This document shows, one piece after another, positions 3,480 through 59,332 of a DNA stretch of 64,000 nucleotides. The translations under genes were made by a program, and so were the position numbers. The stretch covers positions 2,719-66,718 of the forward strand of contig QAMI01000059.1 of NCBI GenBank assembly GCA_003150395.1, given 5' to 3'. The notes under the pieces were generated by a model. It was not told the origin of the DNA and ran no database searches. It saw only the letters and a program-made list of their open reading frames with translations. The stretch comes from Candidatus Gastranaerophilales bacterium (GTDB taxonomy: Bacteria; Cyanobacteriota; Vampirovibrionia; Gastranaerophilales; Gastranaerophilaceae). Position 1 is the first letter of the stretch. Every line of letters starts with the position of its first letter.

Positions 3480-4115
3480 TTAATTGTTATTTTGGTTTTG
3501 GTTTGCTTCTTTTTTAACAGTTTCTCTTACAACAGATGTTGTTCTCAAATATGATTTTTCAAGTTCGCCTTTAACGCTTACTTTACCGTCAGCCGCTACA
3601 TAAATCGAATATCTGTCAGGGGTTTTGCAGTCCTGAGTACCAGATTTGCAATTAGGAGCTTTATCGCCGTTAATGTCAACCATGATTTCTGCTTCTGTTG
3701 CAAATGAAGTATTTGGCATATAATATGCTACGCTGTCATTTGTTGTAAAGCTTATTGTTCCATTACCGTTGCAAGTGATAGTGTCATCTTCGATTGTGTT
3801 CATCTTCATTGCGAATAGCTGGCAGAATTTAGTGTTGCCGCTGTATGAAGTGTCATTAAGTGTTACTGCTGTTGTGTTATCTAAGCCTTGATATTTTGTT
3901 CCGTCATCTTTTGATGCTTCCGGATAAAGATAGTCGTCGTTAACAAGTTCTGTTACAACCCGCTCTACATTTGTATAAGCTTTTTTAAACATCATTTTTT
4001 GTCTGTCAGGCTGGATTTGGTTAATTGCCGGCAGGATTAATGATGCTATAACCCCAACAATTGCCAATGCTACCAGAATTTCGCCTAAACTGAATGCTGC
4101 TTTTCTATTTTTCAT
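3480..4115 (-). CDS. Type IV pilin-like / pseudopilin protein
   Basis: MKNRKAA|FSLGEILVALAIVGVIASLILP (E at +5, hydrophobic helix). VDINGDKAPN motif is shared with the other pilin-like genes here. Confidence 0.8.
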   Translation of the reverse strand: MKNRKAAFSLGEILVALAIVGVIASLILPAINQIQPDRQKMMFKKAYTNVERVVTELVNDDYLYPEASKDDGTKYQGLDNTTAVTLNDTSYSGNTKFCQLFAMKMNTIEDDTITCNGNGTISFTTNDSVAYYMPNTSFATEAEIMVDINGDKAPNCKSGTQDCKTPDRYSIYVAADGKVSVKGELEKSYLRTTSVVRETVKKEANQNQNNN

Positions 4116-11586: not shown

Positions 11587-12939
11587 ATGAGCGATTATAT
11601 CAATGACGTTTTAAATAATGTAAAAGAAAAAAATCTTAATGAACCTGAATACTTACAGGCTGTTGATGAAGTCTTAACAACAATACGGCCGATAGTTGAA
11701 CTTCATCCGGAATATAAAAAGCTTGCAGTTCTGGAGCGTATGACAGAACCTGAAAGAATAATTACTTTCCGTGTTCCCTGGGTCAATGACAATGGAGAAG
11801 TTATTGTTAATCGCGGTTACAGAGTTCAGTACAGCGGTCTTATCGGACCTTATAAAGGCGGATTGAGATTTGACCCGAGTGTAAACCAATCAATTATGAA
11901 ATTTCTTGCGTTTGAACAAATATTTAAAAATGCATTGACAGGACTTCCAATTGGCGGAGGTAAGGGCGGAAGCGATTTTGACCCGAAAGGTAAATCAGAT
12001 ATGGAAATTATGCGTTTTTGCCAAAGCTTTATGACAGAACTGCAAAGACATATTGGTCCTGATGTGGATGTTCCGGCCGGTGATATCGGTGTTGGTGCCC
12101 GTGAAATCGGATATCTTTACGGCCAGTATCGCAGAATTAAAGATCGTTATGACGGAGGTGTTTTAACCGGCAAAGGGCTTGAATATGGCGGCTCTCTTGC
12201 AAGAACTGAAGCCACCGGATACGGTTTGATTTATTTTATGAGAGAAATGCTTAAAGCCAATGGCGCTCAGACTCTTGAAGGTAAAACAGTTACAATTTCC
12301 GGCTCAGGAAATGTTGCAATTTATGCATGTGAAAAAGCACAGATGCTCGGCGCTAAAGTTGTTGCCATGAGCGACAGCAGCGGTTGTATTTATGATGAAA
12401 ACGGAATTGATTTGGCTGCTATCAAACAAATTAAGGAAGTTGAAAGAAAACGAATTAAGGAATATTTAAATTATCATCCGCAAGCAAAATATATAGAGCG
12501 TAAAGATAATAATTCTCCTATTTGGGAAATTAAAACAGATATTGCGTTGCCTTGTGCAACACAAAATGAAGTTACGCTTGAATCTGCCAAAAAGCTTGTT
12601 GAAAACGGTGTAATTGCAATTGGGGAGGGCGCTAATATGCCTTGTGAACTAGCTGCAACAGAATATTTCCTGAAACATGGTATTCTTGTTGCTCCTGCAA
12701 AAGCGGCAAATGCAGGCGGAGTTGCAACATCAGCAATTGAGATGAGCCAGAATTCAATGAGATATTATCTTTCTTTTGAACAGGTTGATAATATGTTGGA
12801 TGCGATTATGGTAAATATTTTCAAGTCCACACAGGAAGCTTGCGAAAATTATTCATTAGGTAATAATTATGTTGCAGGAGCAAACATTGCGGCGTTTACA
12901 AAACTTGCAAAAGCAATGATTGCACAAGGAATTGTTTAA
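11587..12939 (+). CDS. gdhA: NADP-specific glutamate dehydrogenase
   Basis: 450 aa with KGGLRF, GLPIGGGKGGSDFDPKGKSD and the GSGNVA dinucleotide fold. Confidence 0.95.
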   Translation: MSDYINDVLNNVKEKNLNEPEYLQAVDEVLTTIRPIVELHPEYKKLAVLERMTEPERIITFRVPWVNDNGEVIVNRGYRVQYSGLIGPYKGGLRFDPSVNQSIMKFLAFEQIFKNALTGLPIGGGKGGSDFDPKGKSDMEIMRFCQSFMTELQRHIGPDVDVPAGDIGVGAREIGYLYGQYRRIKDRYDGGVLTGKGLEYGGSLARTEATGYGLIYFMREMLKANGAQTLEGKTVTISGSGNVAIYACEKAQMLGAKVVAMSDSSGCIYDENGIDLAAIKQIKEVERKRIKEYLNYHPQAKYIERKDNNSPIWEIKTDIALPCATQNEVTLESAKKLVENGVIAIGEGANMPCELAATEYFLKHGILVAPAKAANAGGVATSAIEMSQNSMRYYLSFEQVDNMLDAIMVNIFKSTQEACENYSLGNNYVAGANIAAFTKLAKAMIAQGIV

Positions 12940-12969
12940 TTTTTAGAATAGTAAAAATAAGGAGCACAA

Positions 12970-13748
12970 ATGTCAAAAACACAAGTTATTATTGGATTTA
13001 ACGGGGGGGGGGGCACCCGGAAAACAGCTCCTTAAAGCCTTTTAAAATCAATGCTTTTACTCTTGCCGAAGTTCTTGTAACTCTGGGAATTATCGGGGTA
13101 ATTGCAGCAATGACTCTTCCGTCTGTTATTAATAAGGCGGAAAAAATGATTTTAAAAAACCAATTCAAGAAAACATATTCAACATTTTCGCAAGCATTGC
13201 TTAAATCCGAAGCTGATTATGGTGCAAAACCAGCATGTTATTATCTGACATCATCAAATTCTTCTGTATCCGGACTTATCTCAAGCCAGTATCTTGATGT
13301 AGAATGCAATGTTTTAAAAACACTTTTTCTGAAAAATTTGAATGTAATTGCAACTTGCGAAGATAATGCATACCCGACCTGCATACCAAAATATAAAGGT
13401 TTTGATACCATGGCGATTGAGAATAATCCAGACTTATCAGAAGAAGAAGCTTTAGAGATAGTCAGGGGGCAGTCGGGTTTCAAGCAGAATAATATTTTAT
13501 ACAAAGCACCTGCATACGTTTTGTCAGACGGTAGTATAATTTTGAGTTATGCCTCGGCATCCTTTCCTAAAATATTTGCAATAGATATTAACGGCAAAAA
13601 AGGACCAAACAAATGGGGGCATGACCTGTTTTCTTTCTGGATTGGAAGTAATGAAAAATCTAATATTATCCTTCTCGGAACAACTTATCTGGTTGAAAAA
13701 GGCGGTGTTACATCAAGAAAAATGATACAAGATGTTCTTAAAAAATAA
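12970..13748 (+). CDS. Type IV pilin-like protein, frameshifted at a G11 tract in the leader region (candidate phase-variable gene, OFF as sequenced)
   Basis: AAGGAG (12959-12964) then ATG 12970 gives MSKTQVIIGFN-G11. The frame as sequenced stops at TAA 13033. The other frame reads HPENSSLKPFKINA|FTLAEVLVTLGIIGVIAAMTLP and runs into track ORF 13110..13748. That frame has no canonical start between TAA 12999 and FTLAE. Confidence 0.75.
13003..13013. repeat. Homopolymer G11
   Basis: Counted directly: 13003-13013 are all G. Confidence 0.95.
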
Positions 13749-14263: not shown

Positions 14264-14292
14264 AAAAGCCGGATTTAATCCGGCGCTTTTTT
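14264..14292 (+). terminator. Intrinsic terminator of msrB
   Basis: GCCGGA-tttaa-TCCGGC followed by GCTTTTTT. It overlaps the 3' end of the convergent esterase gene. Confidence 0.65.
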
Positions 14293-39038: not shown

Positions 39039-40098
39039 TTTAATAGGTCTCCTTTGTTTTGAAACTTGCCTAAAACGATTGGACAATATTTTTCTAATAT
39101 TTTAATTGTGTAGTAGTTTATAAGCAATAGTATGAATGTGAATATTATTAAAAATATTAGTTTTAGGATTATATTTGGAAAGTAATTTATTATTTGTGTA
39201 TTCAAAATTCGTAGAGGAAAAAGCAGTAACTCATGAAAAAATATTATAAATAATGTATTTTTTGCTATAGTTTTTATAAATTCATTTTCATCGCAGAAAA
39301 ATTTAGAAATTATACATATCATATATGTTCCGATTATGCCACCTAAATATGATAAAAACAAGGATTGATTTTGAATATTTTTATTAGGAAGACTCATTTC
39401 TATCACTCCGTTATGTGAAAGTATATTTTCTAATAGTAAATAACTAATTATAACCCCCCCCCCCCAGCTCTAAGCCCTTTTTTAGTATAGCTTTTCAGCA
39501 TATAGCCAAAAGTGAAATAAGGTACCGCCATTAGAGTATTATCAAGGCAAAAATATAAATTTATATTATTTATAAATAAAAATTTACATATAAATATTGC
39601 TGAAATGTTTAACAAAACTAAATTTCTAATATTTAAATTTATATTATTAAATAGTAATCTAAGTTGTATGATTGTCATTATAAACCAGCATGGCGCGCAA
39701 TTTGGTATTGAAATAGGTGTACTAGAAGCATCTCCAAGAATTGCTCCACTGACAATTCCTAATATTTTATATCCTAAATAAGGTTTTATTAGAAACAAAT
39801 ACCAAGCTTTAAAAGGTAAGTATATAATCTGGTAAATTAAATAAGGAATTAAAAGTCCATATAAAATTTTTTTATAGTTATCAGTTTTTGTTTTTGATTT
39901 ATATAAATACCCTGCCATAATAAAGAATAAAGGCATATGAAATAGATAGATAAAATCCCATAGATGTGAGAAAAATGTAGAATTTTTTAGAAGTCCAAAT
40001 GGCGATAATGTATGCCCAAAGACTACCAAAAATATTCCAATAAACTTTGCAATATCTACCCAAACAATATTTCTATTTTCAATAATATTTTCAGACAA
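39029..40098 (-). CDS. Acyltransferase-3 (OafA/YrhL-like) membrane O-acyltransferase, split by a G12 tract (candidate phase-variable gene, OFF as sequenced)
   Basis: Track ORFs 39448..40098 (N-terminus NRNIVWVDIAKFIGIFLVVFGH) and 39029..39406 are both polytopic. Together they equal one acyltransferase of about 350 aa. The second frame is open back through the tract. Confidence 0.8.
39454..39465. repeat. Homopolymer C12 on + strand (G12 in the gene sense)
   Basis: Counted directly. Confidence 0.95.
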
Positions 40099-53669: not shown

Positions 53670-54489
53670 TTATTTAAGCATTTCTTCAAACATTTGTTTT
53701 CCGGTTTTACCACCCTTTTCGGTTGCGTAAGTAATAGGAACTAAGCTAGTTATACCGTTTACATTATCCCCCTTCAACTGGAAGGTAAACATATCATATC
53801 CCCATTTATTCGGGTTTTTATGACCATTGATGTCAATGGTGAATAATGGTGTTGTGGAGCTATACCCAAGTATAATAGTTCCGTCCGCTAAAACCCACGC
53901 CGGCCACTTTTCTTTAATGTTTTTGTCGCTAAACCCACTATTCGGGTCTGGGTTTGCTTCTGGATTGTTTTCAAGTTTTACCTTATCAACGCCTTTGTGC
54001 TTATTTGTAATACAACCTTTCTCAAGTGCTTTATTCTGACAATATGTTGCAACATTCAGTGTCTTGAATAGTTGTTCTCTGAATATTTTACATTCATTCA
54101 TGCCACCGTTATAATCTGATGGAAGAGATGAACCATCAGGCATTGACCATTTATTACAGTTACCATATTCGTTACGGTTGGTGCAGGTTGCGGCGGGGTA
54201 TGGTGAGTTTGCCCAGTAGAAACAATTAATCGGCGCTTCATTTTTTGCCTGAACCAATTTTATTCCATTAAAAAGGATGTTGTAAGCTTTTTTGTACTGG
54301 TTTTTCAAAATCATGTTTTGTGCTTTGTTAATGACTGAAGGTAAGGTCATCGCAGCTATAATTCCGATAATCCCAAGTGTGATTAAAACCTCTGATAATG
54401 TAAACCCTTTTGAAAAATGGTTAAAACCATTGCTATGACTGAATTCTACGGGGGGGGGGGCAGCCCATAATTCCTATTCCTCTAAGCAT
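53670..54489 (-). CDS. Type IV pilin-like protein, frameshifted at a C11 tract in the leader region (candidate phase-variable gene, OFF as sequenced)
   Basis: AGGAGG (rc of 54495-54500) then ATG 54489 gives MLRGIGIMGC-C11. The frame as sequenced ends RRIQS*. The other frame reads VEFSHSNGFNHFSKG|FTLSEVLITLGIIGIIAAMTLP and runs into track ORF 53670..54350. That frame has no canonical start upstream of FTLSE. Confidence 0.75.
54450..54460. repeat. Homopolymer G11 on + strand (C11 in the gene sense)
   Basis: Counted directly. Confidence 0.95.
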
Positions 54490-55681: not shown

Positions 55682-56380
55682 TTACCACGGATAATCATCT
55701 CTGATTTCCCAGCCATCTGCCATAATCAACCCTAAACAAAATGCACCGTTTGTATCGCCGGCTTCTTTTCTACAACCATATCTTTGTGATTTAATAATTT
55801 CATTTCTGTCAAATTTTGAATATCCGCCAATATCGGATGTCCCTTTATAACCAAAAGGAACAAGGCCGTAGTCTTTAGATATAACAATCGCAAAAAAATC
55901 TTTTCCAAATTTGTTTGGCTTTTTATATCCGTTTAAATCAATACAGATAATCTTAAAAGGAAGATATGAGTACTGCTGGGTATTACTTAAATAAAATGTT
56001 GTTCCGTCAACAGTGCTTACAATCAGTGCTTCGGAGTAAAATGGAGTAAATGTATTTTCAATAGTTCCATTTGGCCTTGTATATTGAATTTTATCAGATA
56101 TTTTCCCATAAGATGTCATATTAATTGTTTTTAATTGAGGTTTTATATATTGATTAAAAAATTCAGCAGACGTCTGATTATAATTCCAATATGTCAGATT
56201 TTCGTTTTTTAGCTCAGAAAGTTCTATTGCCTGAGATAATATTGAATAAACTTTTTTTAATTGGTTTATTGTCTGAATTTTTTGATATTTCCCGATTAAC
56301 GCAGGTAGCGTTATAGCCGCAACAATTCCGATAATACCTAATGTTATTAAAACTTCTGGCATGGTGAATGCTTTTTTCAT
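55682..56380 (-). CDS. Type IV pilin-like protein
   Basis: MKKA|FTMPEVLITLGIIGIVAAITLP; IDLNGYKKPNKFGKDFF. The C-terminus YGCRKEAGDTNGAFCLGLIMADGWEIRDDYPW parallels 58634..59332. Confidence 0.85.
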   Translation of the reverse strand: MKKAFTMPEVLITLGIIGIVAAITLPALIGKYQKIQTINQLKKVYSILSQAIELSELKNENLTYWNYNQTSAEFFNQYIKPQLKTINMTSYGKISDKIQYTRPNGTIENTFTPFYSEALIVSTVDGTTFYLSNTQQYSYLPFKIICIDLNGYKKPNKFGKDFFAIVISKDYGLVPFGYKGTSDIGGYSKFDRNEIIKSQRYGCRKEAGDTNGAFCLGLIMADGWEIRDDYPW

Positions 56381-58494: not shown

Positions 58495-58545
58495 ATGAAA
58501 AAGCGCACTATGACTGAATTGCCGGGGGGGGGGGGCATCCGCTAA
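58495..58545 (+). CDS. Upstream mini-ORF containing a G12 tract (MKKRTMTELPGGGGIR*); becomes the start of the downstream pilin at G11
   Basis: AAGGAG (58481-58486), 8-nt spacer, ATG 58495, stop TAA 58543. With one G fewer, the frame continues without a stop into MKKG|FTLAEV. Confidence 0.5.
   Translation: MKKRTMTELPGGGGIR
58524..58535. repeat. Homopolymer G12
   Basis: Counted directly. Confidence 0.95.
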
Positions 58546-58633: not shown

Positions 58634-59332
58634 ATGAAAAAAGGTTTTACATTAGCGGAAGTTTTAATAACTCTTGGTGTCATCGGAATTATTGCAGCAA
58701 TGACTTTTCCAATGATGATTACCAAATATCAAAAACAGGTTACAGTTGAGCGTCTAAAGAAATTTTATTCTGTCATGCAAAATGCTATCAGGCTTTCTGA
58801 AGCTGATAATGGAGAAATGGCAGATTGGGATTTCCCTAAAGATACCTATGACAGAAATATGAAGACATTTTTTGACAGATATTACAGACCTTACTTGAAA
58901 GATTCTCAGGAATGCAGTAAGTCCTTATGTTTTAAACATGAAAAATATGATATTTATTACTTGAATGGGAAACCTGCTGGAGGAATTTATTCTGATAATT
59001 ATATAGTTAAGTTGAATGATGGGATGTATGTTTATTTTCTTCCAAATACTCCGGCAGCTTATATTTGGATGTTTGTTGACATAAACGGGCATCAGAAGCC
59101 AAACACCATAGGAAGGGACATTTTTGTTTTTGATATATATAGTTATCCTGCAAGGGCTCAACGCAAAAATTATCACATGAAATTCTGGGGTGAATACGAT
59201 AAAGATGATGGAAAATTAACTGACAGTAATGATTATGGCTGCAACAAGTCAGCATCTAGATATTCAGGTTTTAAATGCGGTGAATTAATCTTACGAAGCG
59301 GCTGGAAAATCCCCAAAAATTACCCCTGGTAG
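58634..59332 (+). CDS. Type IV pilin-like protein
   Basis: MKKG|FTLAEVLITLGVIGIIAAMTFP; VDINGHQKPNTIGRDIF; C-terminus YGCNKSASRYSGFKCGELILRSGWKIPKNYPW. There is only a weak SD (AAGGG) before ATG 58634. Confidence 0.85.
   Translation: MKKGFTLAEVLITLGVIGIIAAMTFPMMITKYQKQVTVERLKKFYSVMQNAIRLSEADNGEMADWDFPKDTYDRNMKTFFDRYYRPYLKDSQECSKSLCFKHEKYDIYYLNGKPAGGIYSDNYIVKLNDGMYVYFLPNTPAAYIWMFVDINGHQKPNTIGRDIFVFDIYSYPARAQRKNYHMKFWGEYDKDDGKLTDSNDYGCNKSASRYSGFKCGELILRSGWKIPKNYPW

Follow-up and report, generated by a model that had tools for sequence, protein, structure and literature searches.

A length-variable poly-G tract in the leader of a pilin-like gene of Gastranaerophilales: a likely phase-variation switch

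Introduction

In Neisseria, the antigenic variation that involves pilE and pilS is started by a G-quadruplex located upstream of pilE. The homo-G tract of the pilC genes of Neisseria gonorrhoeae and Neisseria meningitidis lies in the region that codes for the signal peptide (Jonsson et al. 1991, as summarised in PMC5354566), and in the Neisseria opa genes, a multi-copy family encoding surface proteins, the repeated unit CTCTT is found in the leader-coding 5' end (PMC5354566). Poly-G contingency loci are present in Campylobacter jejuni (PMC6321876, PMC8437040), and class III signal peptides are a feature of the superfamily of type IV pilins and pseudopilins (PMC4471445). The locus described here belongs to a Candidatus Gastranaerophilales bacterium and lies in a stretch of 64,000 nucleotides (GenBank assembly GCA_003150395.1, contig QAMI01000059.1, positions 2,719–66,718 of the forward strand), hereinafter the window, to which all coordinates refer. 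In this locus (locus 1; gene order gdhA, pilin-like gene, msrB), a run of 11 G residues (G11) separates the start codon from the rest of the pilin-like gene and places the two in different reading frames.

The Gastranaerophilales are widespread uncultured gut bacteria, and next to nothing is known about how they interact with their host. In all likelihood, locus 1 is a simple-sequence contingency locus, i.e. a slipped-strand switch within a prepilin leader, similar to that of Neisseria pilC. The mechanism is a textbook one; the locus appears to be new with respect to the lineage and the gene family, and the setting and scale appear to be undescribed. No paper connecting Gastranaerophilales, or this gene family, with phase variation was found in the literature searches.

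Reading frames and tract length at locus 1

An earlier note on this DNA, made from the sequence alone, had proposed that the pilin-like gene is a phase-variable prepilin gene, ON at G9 and G12 and OFF at the G11 of the window, and both the frame logic and the length polymorphism support this proposal. The start codon ATG 12970 encodes MSKTQVIIGFN, which is followed by the G11 tract, the peptide GGGGTRKTAP and the stop codon TAA 13033. The pilin frame is closed at TAA 12999–13001 and open from 13002 (RGGGHPENSSLKPFKINA↓FTLAEVLVTLGIIGVIAAMTLP, where the arrow marks the predicted cleavage site), with no ATG, GTG or TTG ahead of ATG 13110. All these positions match the sequence, and so does the remark in the note that translation of the open reading frame (ORF) of the annotation track (13110–13748) from ATG 13110 would lose half of the N-terminal helix together with the cleavage site. 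When the tract is rebuilt in silico with G8 to G14, a continuous product (259 and 258 amino acids) is obtained at G12 and G9 only, in agreement with the in-frame lengths derived earlier, and the remaining lengths yield peptides of 20–24 amino acids. The claim that the pilin-like gene has a single start codon, located ahead of the tract, stands for the tract as sequenced, with two qualifications: at G10, TTG 12992, which lacks a Shine-Dalgarno (SD) sequence, opens the pilin frame and is used by one gene caller (P0241), and one NCBI entry (P0246) has the non-canonical start MNAFTLAEV, which is not preceded by a ribosome-binding site.

The tract begins 11 codons past the start codon. The base composition of the window is 34% G+C, and it contains no G/C runs of 7–10 bases and four runs of 11–12 bases; furthermore, the 11-G pattern does not occur once in 100 dinucleotide-preserving shuffles, so the G11 tract is not a chance feature. 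The features of locus 1, along with those of the other tract-bearing genes in the window, are listed in Table 1. In related modules, AAGGAG(C/G) precedes the start codon in nearly all cases.

Comparison contigs were obtained by protein-based look-ups in the ENA and Logan assemblies. One of these contigs (L088, ENA ERZ28573876), from an independent assembly, shares 6,780 bp with the window in an alignment that has 0 mismatches and a single gap, at the tract itself, which is G12 (ON). In two further contigs, the tract is likewise the sole gap: G12 at 99.3% identity (L001) and G10 at 99.4% identity (L090, Logan SRR31481453). Two contigs with 96% identity (L083, L084) carry G11. Thus, three lengths are well supported at the same site, including a change in an otherwise identical sequence. 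The annotated product of L088 (P0243) coincides, residue for residue, with the G12 reconstruction, and another public protein (P0001) is 98% identical to the ON product; in L083 and L084, the substitutions downstream of the tract leave the ON frame open (GGGGHPINSSLK… and GGGGRPKNSSLK…). Neither of the two situations that the earlier note had named as adverse to a switch, namely a tract fixed at G12 and a gene degraded in relatives, is therefore what these contigs contain. A scan of Joint Genome Institute (JGI) metagenomes for the exact tract flanks gave no match, and the bacterium is evidently absent from these data.

The proposed course of events is as follows. As the DNA is replicated, the G tract would gain or lose bases, one or more at a time, at a high frequency through slipped-strand mispairing, initiation would always take place at ATG 12970 with its strong ribosome-binding site, and the tract length would then set the frame. 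At G12 or G9, the ribosome would read a leader of 28–29 residues (MSKTQVIIGFN-Gly3/4-HPENSSLKPFKINA) on into the pilin-like protein; at G10, G11 or G13, termination would follow after ~20 codons and, for lack of any usable start in the pilin frame itself, no pilin would result. The ON product would be a class III (prepilin-type) precursor, predicted from its sequence to be cut by prepilin peptidase at Ala29↓Phe30, and given that the tract-encoded glycines belong to the discarded leader, steps of three would leave the mature protein unchanged. We infer the rate of switching, the mixture of lengths within a population, and the cleavage, export and function of the protein.

With respect to transcription, no terminator-like site was detected in a scan of the DNA between gdhA and the pilin-like gene, as the earlier note had it for the stretch downstream of position 12939, and read-through from gdhA may account for expression, consistent with this absence. 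The promoter-like site at 12921–12949 may provide an alternative; its hexamers TGCACA and TAGAAT are found also in the orthologue L085.

Table 1. Coordinates of the features of locus 1 and of the other tract-bearing genes in the window.
Feature	Position	Strand	Remarks
gdhA	11587–12939		Upstream neighbour of locus 1
Promoter-like site TGCACA-17-TAGAAT	12921–12949	+	Last gdhA codons and 30-nt spacer; weak, 9/12 consensus positions, consensus scan only
Shine-Dalgarno sequence AAGGAG	12959–12964	+	5 nt 5' of ATG 12970; read from sequence
Short ORF of the G11 (OFF) state	12970–13035	+	Product MSKTQVIIGFNGGGGTRKTAP; stop TAA 13033–13035
Leader-coding segment, pilin frame (…GGGHPENSSLKPFKINA)	13002–13055	+	Translatable only if the tract puts ATG 12970 in frame
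Putative hypermutable homopolymer G11, flanks C-Gn-CA	13003–13013	+	ON: G9, G12; OFF: G10, G11, G13
Inverted Shine-Dalgarno copy GCTCCTTA	13027–13034	+	Partner TAAGGAGC at 12958–12965
Predicted prepilin-peptidase site	Ala(-1) 13053–13055 / Phe(+1) 13056–13058	+	TIGR02532 match
Mature pilin-like protein, 230 amino acids (FTLAEVLVTLGIIGVIAAMTLP…), plus stop	13056–13748	+	N-terminal hydrophobic helix and Cys-containing globular domain
First terminator-like hairpin	14268–14284	+	After msrB; likely end of the transcription unit
Acyltransferase switch, G12 on coding strand	39454–39465	-	Splits Acyl_transf_3 gene (40098 to 39029) of a gene cluster for polysaccharide synthesis
Pilin-like gene 2	ATG 54489; mature part from 54404; stop 53670	-	Leader end …NHFSKG↓FTLSE
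Locus 2, C11 on coding strand	54450–54460	-	Leader of pilin-like gene 2; OFF as sequenced, ON at C10/C13
Locus 3, G12 in short ORF (ATG 58495)	58524–58535	+	5' of pilin-like gene 3 (own ATG 58634)

The tract in the Gastranaerophilales family

A family search with one genome per species yielded >583 loci for related pilin-like proteins, every one of them in this lineage, and 80 loci (L003–L082, 267 kb) were fetched as the reference set. In the reference DNA, 46 of the 52 G/C runs of at least 8 bases are located within 330 nt 5' of a pilin-like Phe(+1), and a tract is present at about half of the pilin-like N-termini (48 of 87). The layout is constant, consisting of an SD sequence, ATG, 2–15 codons, the tract, a leader of 7 to ~95 codons and the motif [A/G]↓FTLxE. 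Among the reference loci, the two locus 1 orthologues and the window taken together, the tract is G10 at 23 loci, G11 at 10, G12 at 6, G9 at 5 and G8 at 1, with C10 at 4 loci and C11 at 1.

Strong family-wide evidence comes from the sequence between the tract and Phe(+1), which is open in the pilin frame at 51 of the 54 loci, compared with 2 of 54 for either of the other frames. When this segment is at least 90 nt long, the pilin frame is open in 24 of 27 cases and the other frames in none of the 27. Such preferential openness strongly argues that the ribosome is meant to pass through the tract and on into the pilin, including at those loci whose assembled sequence is out of frame. Among the best 120 homologues, 37 have annotations that correspond to the ON state, their leaders being of the form M-x(2-12)-GGG(G) (e.g. 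MNYRGGGAPENSSLRGKEAG↓FT), and 16 are shortened calls such as MTLPS…; the annotated leaders in the family reach >100 residues. The tract device heads about half of a large family of Gastranaerophilales pilin-like paralogues and, with a separate switch for each gene, every cell would display a stochastic subset of pilin-like proteins.

The gdhA-pilin-msrB slot of another lineage (L085/L086, positions 1501–1815) is occupied by the cassette MTKMQAMIEFS-G11, which is in frame (ON), with a 106-residue open leader ahead of a mature protein ~90% identical to that of locus 1. The presence of different cassettes in one chromosomal slot suggests that cassettes are exchanged between loci. In many leaders of the family, part of the pilin 5' end is present a second time, with a small palindrome after it (AFTLAEGATHVA… = …GCTACGCACGTAGC…, the true AFTLAEVL coming next), as in L019 (893–960), L038 (1443–1510) and L057 (1407–1510) and in the proteins P0018, P0048, P0111 and P0133; these duplicates could be recombination scars or small insertions with target duplication.

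The encoded protein

The ON product (G12) matches TIGR02532 with 19.6 bits (cutoff 16.3); the Pfam N_methyl score of 20.1 bits is slightly below the cutoff of 21.2 because the residue at -1 is Ala. Across 219 family members, this residue is Ala in 149 and Gly in 65. In the AlphaFold2 model of the ON product (mean predicted local distance difference test score, pLDDT, 80.9), residues 1–26 of the leader are disordered, and a helix spanning residues 32–84 is followed by an alpha/beta domain; the globular domain contains the conserved motif DINGKKGPNKWG.

The locus 1 protein has no match to DUF6613 (PF20318) at E <= 0.01. Two of its paralogues in the window score 48.7 bits (58634–59332) and 32.6 bits (55682–56380) against this family, and the alignment of the locus 1 protein with the product of 55682–56380 (34% identity, E = 7e-19) indicates that it is a diverged DUF6613 relative. 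The proteins of locus 1 and locus 2 are 44% identical. The relatives of the locus 1 protein are all encoded by Gastranaerophilales (Melainabacteria) whose genomes were obtained from the guts of animals and humans.

Other tracts and pilin-like genes in the window

At locus 2, where the tract is a C run on the coding strand, ON orthologues exist (P0121, MLRGIGIKGCPPPVKSS…, and P0122). On the + strand, the DNA of this locus reads MVKTIAMTEFYGGGG, a homologue of the usual pre-tract peptide, so the cassette is inverted relative to its gene; it is homologous at the DNA level to the cassette that L041 carries in forward orientation and, although an inverted copy, retains an open frame. All locus 2 orthologues, with 75–89% identity, have the same orientation, and this is therefore treated as an old inversion and not as a flip-flop.

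At locus 3, the frame from the tract to the pilin is open over 110 nt, and a tract of G11 or G14 would join the two ORFs into one. Depending on its phase, the tract leads to such a fusion, to a distant stop codon or to one located ~20 nt ahead of the pilin ATG, and these three outcomes might correspond to three levels of expression. A contig that is otherwise identical to the window over 11,650 bp has G10 at this site, compared with G12 in the window.

The Acyl_transf_3 gene is restored to 355–356 amino acids at G10 or G13. In near-identical contigs, its tract is G12, G13 (ON, annotated with 356 amino acids), G14 or G15, and the G13, G14 and G15 contigs have in common 23 single nucleotide polymorphisms (SNPs) relative to the window. 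Four contigs from short-read assemblies of this strain (L093, L094, L099, L100) end exactly at tracts (window positions 54461, 58508/58534, 39452 and 39462), which shows that assemblers struggle there. Together, the contigs that end at tracts and the three lengths amid 23 common SNPs are indirect hints that different lengths may be mixed in one population.

In addition, the window contains three tract-less prepilin-type genes on the - strand, at 55682–56380, 3480–4115 and ~1953, with ordinary short leaders (MKKA↓FTMPE, MKNRKAA↓FSLGE and …WSG↓FSLVE). Altogether, six prepilin-type genes are dispersed among housekeeping genes in these 64 kb.

Evidence against the proposed switch and alternative explanations

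Several observations weigh against interpreting locus 1 as a slippage switch of a pilin gene. Of the 49 distinct loci with a tract, only 3 are ON in the reference assemblies, a far smaller share than the one-third that tract lengths drawn at random would give, so that either selection for OFF or another route of expression is needed; the modal length is G10, whereas most G10 loci would be ON at G11. This OFF bias may stem from selection for OFF, from a mutational equilibrium near G10 or from a leak by RNA-level slippage. The tract lengths are assembly consensus values, and runs of 10–12 G can be off by one. Two identical ENA contigs with G11 (L087 and L096, ERZ27236828) probably represent the source of the window itself and hence provide no independent evidence, and two further calls, G9 in L002 and G10 in L089, are weak and are given little weight because both contigs contain other indels. 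As for the protein, a Foldseek search of the PDB produced no significant match for the globular domain (best E 0.8; the second-ranked hit, to a type IVb pilin, is not significant either, with E = 0.87 and probability 0.16); Ala at -1 and a 29-residue leader are atypical compared with classical type IVa prepilins. No pilus machinery was found with Pfam among the 20 annotated neighbouring ORFs of the window; in favour of a prepilin-like protein, a related Gastranaerophilus genome has been reported to encode pilA, pilB, pilC, pilT and pilD (PMC5877343).

Also on this side are features of the tract surroundings that would be superfluous under plain slippage, namely the conserved C-Gn-CA flanks and a GCTCC motif. 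The flanking bases are C at -1 in 36 of 43 cases, C at +1 in 41 of 43 and A at +2 in 33 of 43, and nearby positions are not conserved. The flanking CA is used in different codon phases; through the C-Gn-CA arrangement, the opposite strand has ATG, GTG or TTG abutting the C run. The motif GCTCC, part of an inverted copy of the SD sequence AAGGAGC, is located 9–15 nt 3' of the tract in 16 of 47 modules (background 1.5%) and occurs in all three codon phases. In the predicted leader RNA, the SD sequence pairs with its inverted copy in the centroid structure, and the poly-G pairs with CUCCU in the minimum free energy structure. A broader possibility, which we put forward tentatively and regard as somewhat doubtful, is that the tract is one copy of a conserved, portable 5' cassette. 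Besides a ribosome-binding site and, in many copies, the inverted counterpart of that site, the cassette would comprise ATG, a short peptide and C-Gn-CA. Recombination would have carried it, in either orientation, into about half of the several hundred members that the pilin-like family has across the order. With nearly every copy one base away from ON, it would amount to a lineage-wide combinatorial lottery of surface proteins and would imply an extra component; judging from the conservation of the flanks in every codon phase and from the inverted copy, this component could be a factor devoted to recombination or slippage, or else rescue at the RNA level.

The alternatives to the slipped-strand switch differ in how well they survive. 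The best of them, still an unlikely one, is that G11 is the normal genotype and that the product is made at a low constitutive level through RNA polymerase slippage or ribosomal frameshifting. A run of GGG codons permits perfect re-pairing of the tRNA in any frame, poly-G alleles of the Neisseria lgt genes have been proposed to allow leaky expression when out of frame, and the excess of out-of-frame loci (46 of 49), with a mode at G10 where G11 would be ON, is what such rescue would accommodate. However, the direction of the shift differs from locus to locus: among 47 paralogous loci, +1 is required in 24 and -1 in 16. The leader RNA is no more stable than shuffled sequences (z = 0.41), which leaves no significant structure downstream, and an Rfam search of the leader yielded no relevant family. 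Moreover, differences in length are observed directly at the DNA level between identical strains, and ON alleles are common in public assemblies. RNA-level slippage could nevertheless operate alongside DNA switching as a minor leak.

Rather improbable is a sequencing or assembly miscount, whereby the true tract would be fixed at G12, the G11 would be a consensus error and the gene would be an ordinary, constitutively translatable prepilin gene. The difference is one base in a type of run that is error-prone, the otherwise identical contig L088 does have G12, L002 and L089 are rich in indels, and contigs break at tracts. Yet G11 recurs in two independent lineages with 96% identity (L083 and L084), and the clean contig L090, with the tract as the sole gap, has G10. 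The sister tracts differ by 2–3 bases (G10 against G12 at locus 3; G13, G14 and G15 in the acyltransferase gene), which is beyond a consensus error, and the requirement for both +1 and -1 shifts across the paralogues makes a one-directional miscount unlikely. A fixed tract also fails to account for the confinement of G/C runs of at least 8 bases to pilin leaders.

Initiation downstream of, and independent of, the tract, either at ATC 13047 (MNA↓FTLAE, NCBI PWL74212.1) or at ATG 13110, is very unlikely. Gene callers do pick ATG 13110, P0246, an identical protein, is annotated from MNAFTLAEV, and 4 of 49 loci have their own SD sequence and start codon downstream of the tract. Neither 13047 nor 13110, however, is preceded by a ribosome-binding site, and the latter start drops the cleavage site along with half of the helix. 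In 20 of 49 loci, those of the locus 1 type, the pilin frame lacks any ATG, GTG or TTG back to the tract and is nonetheless open up to it, which makes sense only with translation through the tract.

Three spurious starts of the locus 1 gene are found in public data, namely MNAFTLAEV (P0246 = PWL74212.1), the TTG start MDLTGGGHPE… (P0241) and the internal ATG start MTLPS… (212 amino acids).

The two remaining alternatives can be given hardly any credence. A frameshifted, decaying pseudogene would fit a gene that is out of frame as sequenced and has many, possibly redundant, paralogues, but the gene body is intact, orthologues with 96% and ~90% identity preserve the ON frame, an identical ON allele exists (P0243), and the frameshift falls exactly in a homopolymer that is conserved in dozens of paralogues. 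An invertible cassette, in which a recombinase would flip the SD-ATG-tract segment between TAAGGAGC and GCTCCTTA so that orientation would be the switch, is suggested by the 8-bp inverted repeat that brackets the tract, the opposite orientation of the locus 2 cassette relative to its L041 homologue, the C-type tracts in 5 of 52 modules and the start codon that often adjoins the C run on the bottom strand, but locus 1, when inverted, is closed in all three frames, a single orientation is seen in all orthologues of locus 1 (forward) and of locus 2, no recombinase is present among the 20 annotated neighbouring ORFs, and 8 bp is short for a recombinase site. A dynamic invertible element of the fimS or hin type is rejected on account of the constant orientation of the orthologues and the closed frames of the inverted locus 1.

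Implications

If the slipped-strand switch is real, a large set of pilin-like proteins, each switched independently, together with a sugar acyltransferase would be subject to switching in these gut bacteria, amounting to surface variation as in the mucosal pathogens Neisseria and Campylobacter, with attack by antibodies or phages as plausible selective pressures. The truncated and mis-started calls, along with the contig breaks at tracts, imply that the pilin repertoires of Gastranaerophilales are systematically mis-annotated. Counting tract lengths in existing metagenomic reads offers a culture-free route to testing the switch hypothesis.

Comparison with known systems

The type IV pilins and pseudopilins resemble the locus 1 product in the motif [G/A]↓F-x-x-x-E with Glu at +5, in the stretch of ~20 hydrophobic residues and in the long predicted N-terminal helix, and the 29-residue leader of locus 1 is in the type IVb range. 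In contrast, the Gastranaerophilales family mostly has Ala at -1 and includes annotated leaders of >100 residues, its DUF6613-like head has no detectable relative among solved pilins, and the genes are located among housekeeping genes, outside pilus operons.

Locus 1 shares with pilE/pilS a G-rich element beside the 5' end of a pilin gene, the existence of many pilin copies and, between L085 and the window, cassettes that differ at one slot, a difference that suggests recombination. Unlike in pilE/pilS, no silent cassettes or gene conversion have been shown at locus 1, the single run of G10–12 is unlike the G4 motif of pilE, and the frame logic alone accounts for the on/off switch, without recombination.

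The likeness to C. jejuni lies in the low-G+C genome with G/C runs of ~8–13 bases nearly confined to genes for surface structures, in the many loci that combine into a 'phasotype', and in the sugar-modifying enzymes with tracts, comparable to the Acyl_transf_3 gene of the window. The C. jejuni tracts, however, mostly lie inside genes for enzymes of capsule, lipooligosaccharide and flagellin glycosylation, with neither a conserved 5' leader cassette nor a pilin family of this kind. In the opa family, each gene has its own repeat, and independent switching gives combinatorial expression, as it would for the tract-bearing genes of the Gastranaerophilales family; in opa, the repeat is a pentamer and the products are outer-membrane beta-barrels encoded in ~11 copies, whereas the Gastranaerophilales family has a homopolymer, prepilin-type products and dozens of copies.

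The Neisseria pilC genes come closest. In both cases, a G run is placed a few codons past the start, within a leader that is cleaved off during export in pilC and is predicted to be so at locus 1; frameshifts that do not depend on RecA toggle a pilus-related protein in pilC, as slippage would at locus 1, and steps of three spare the mature protein. The differences are that PilC is a Sec-exported tip adhesin or assembly factor with 1–2 gene copies, whereas the tract of locus 1 is in the class III leader of pilin-like subunits, and that this type of tract is found in about half of a very large family, in a non-pathogenic uncultured relative of Cyanobacteria.

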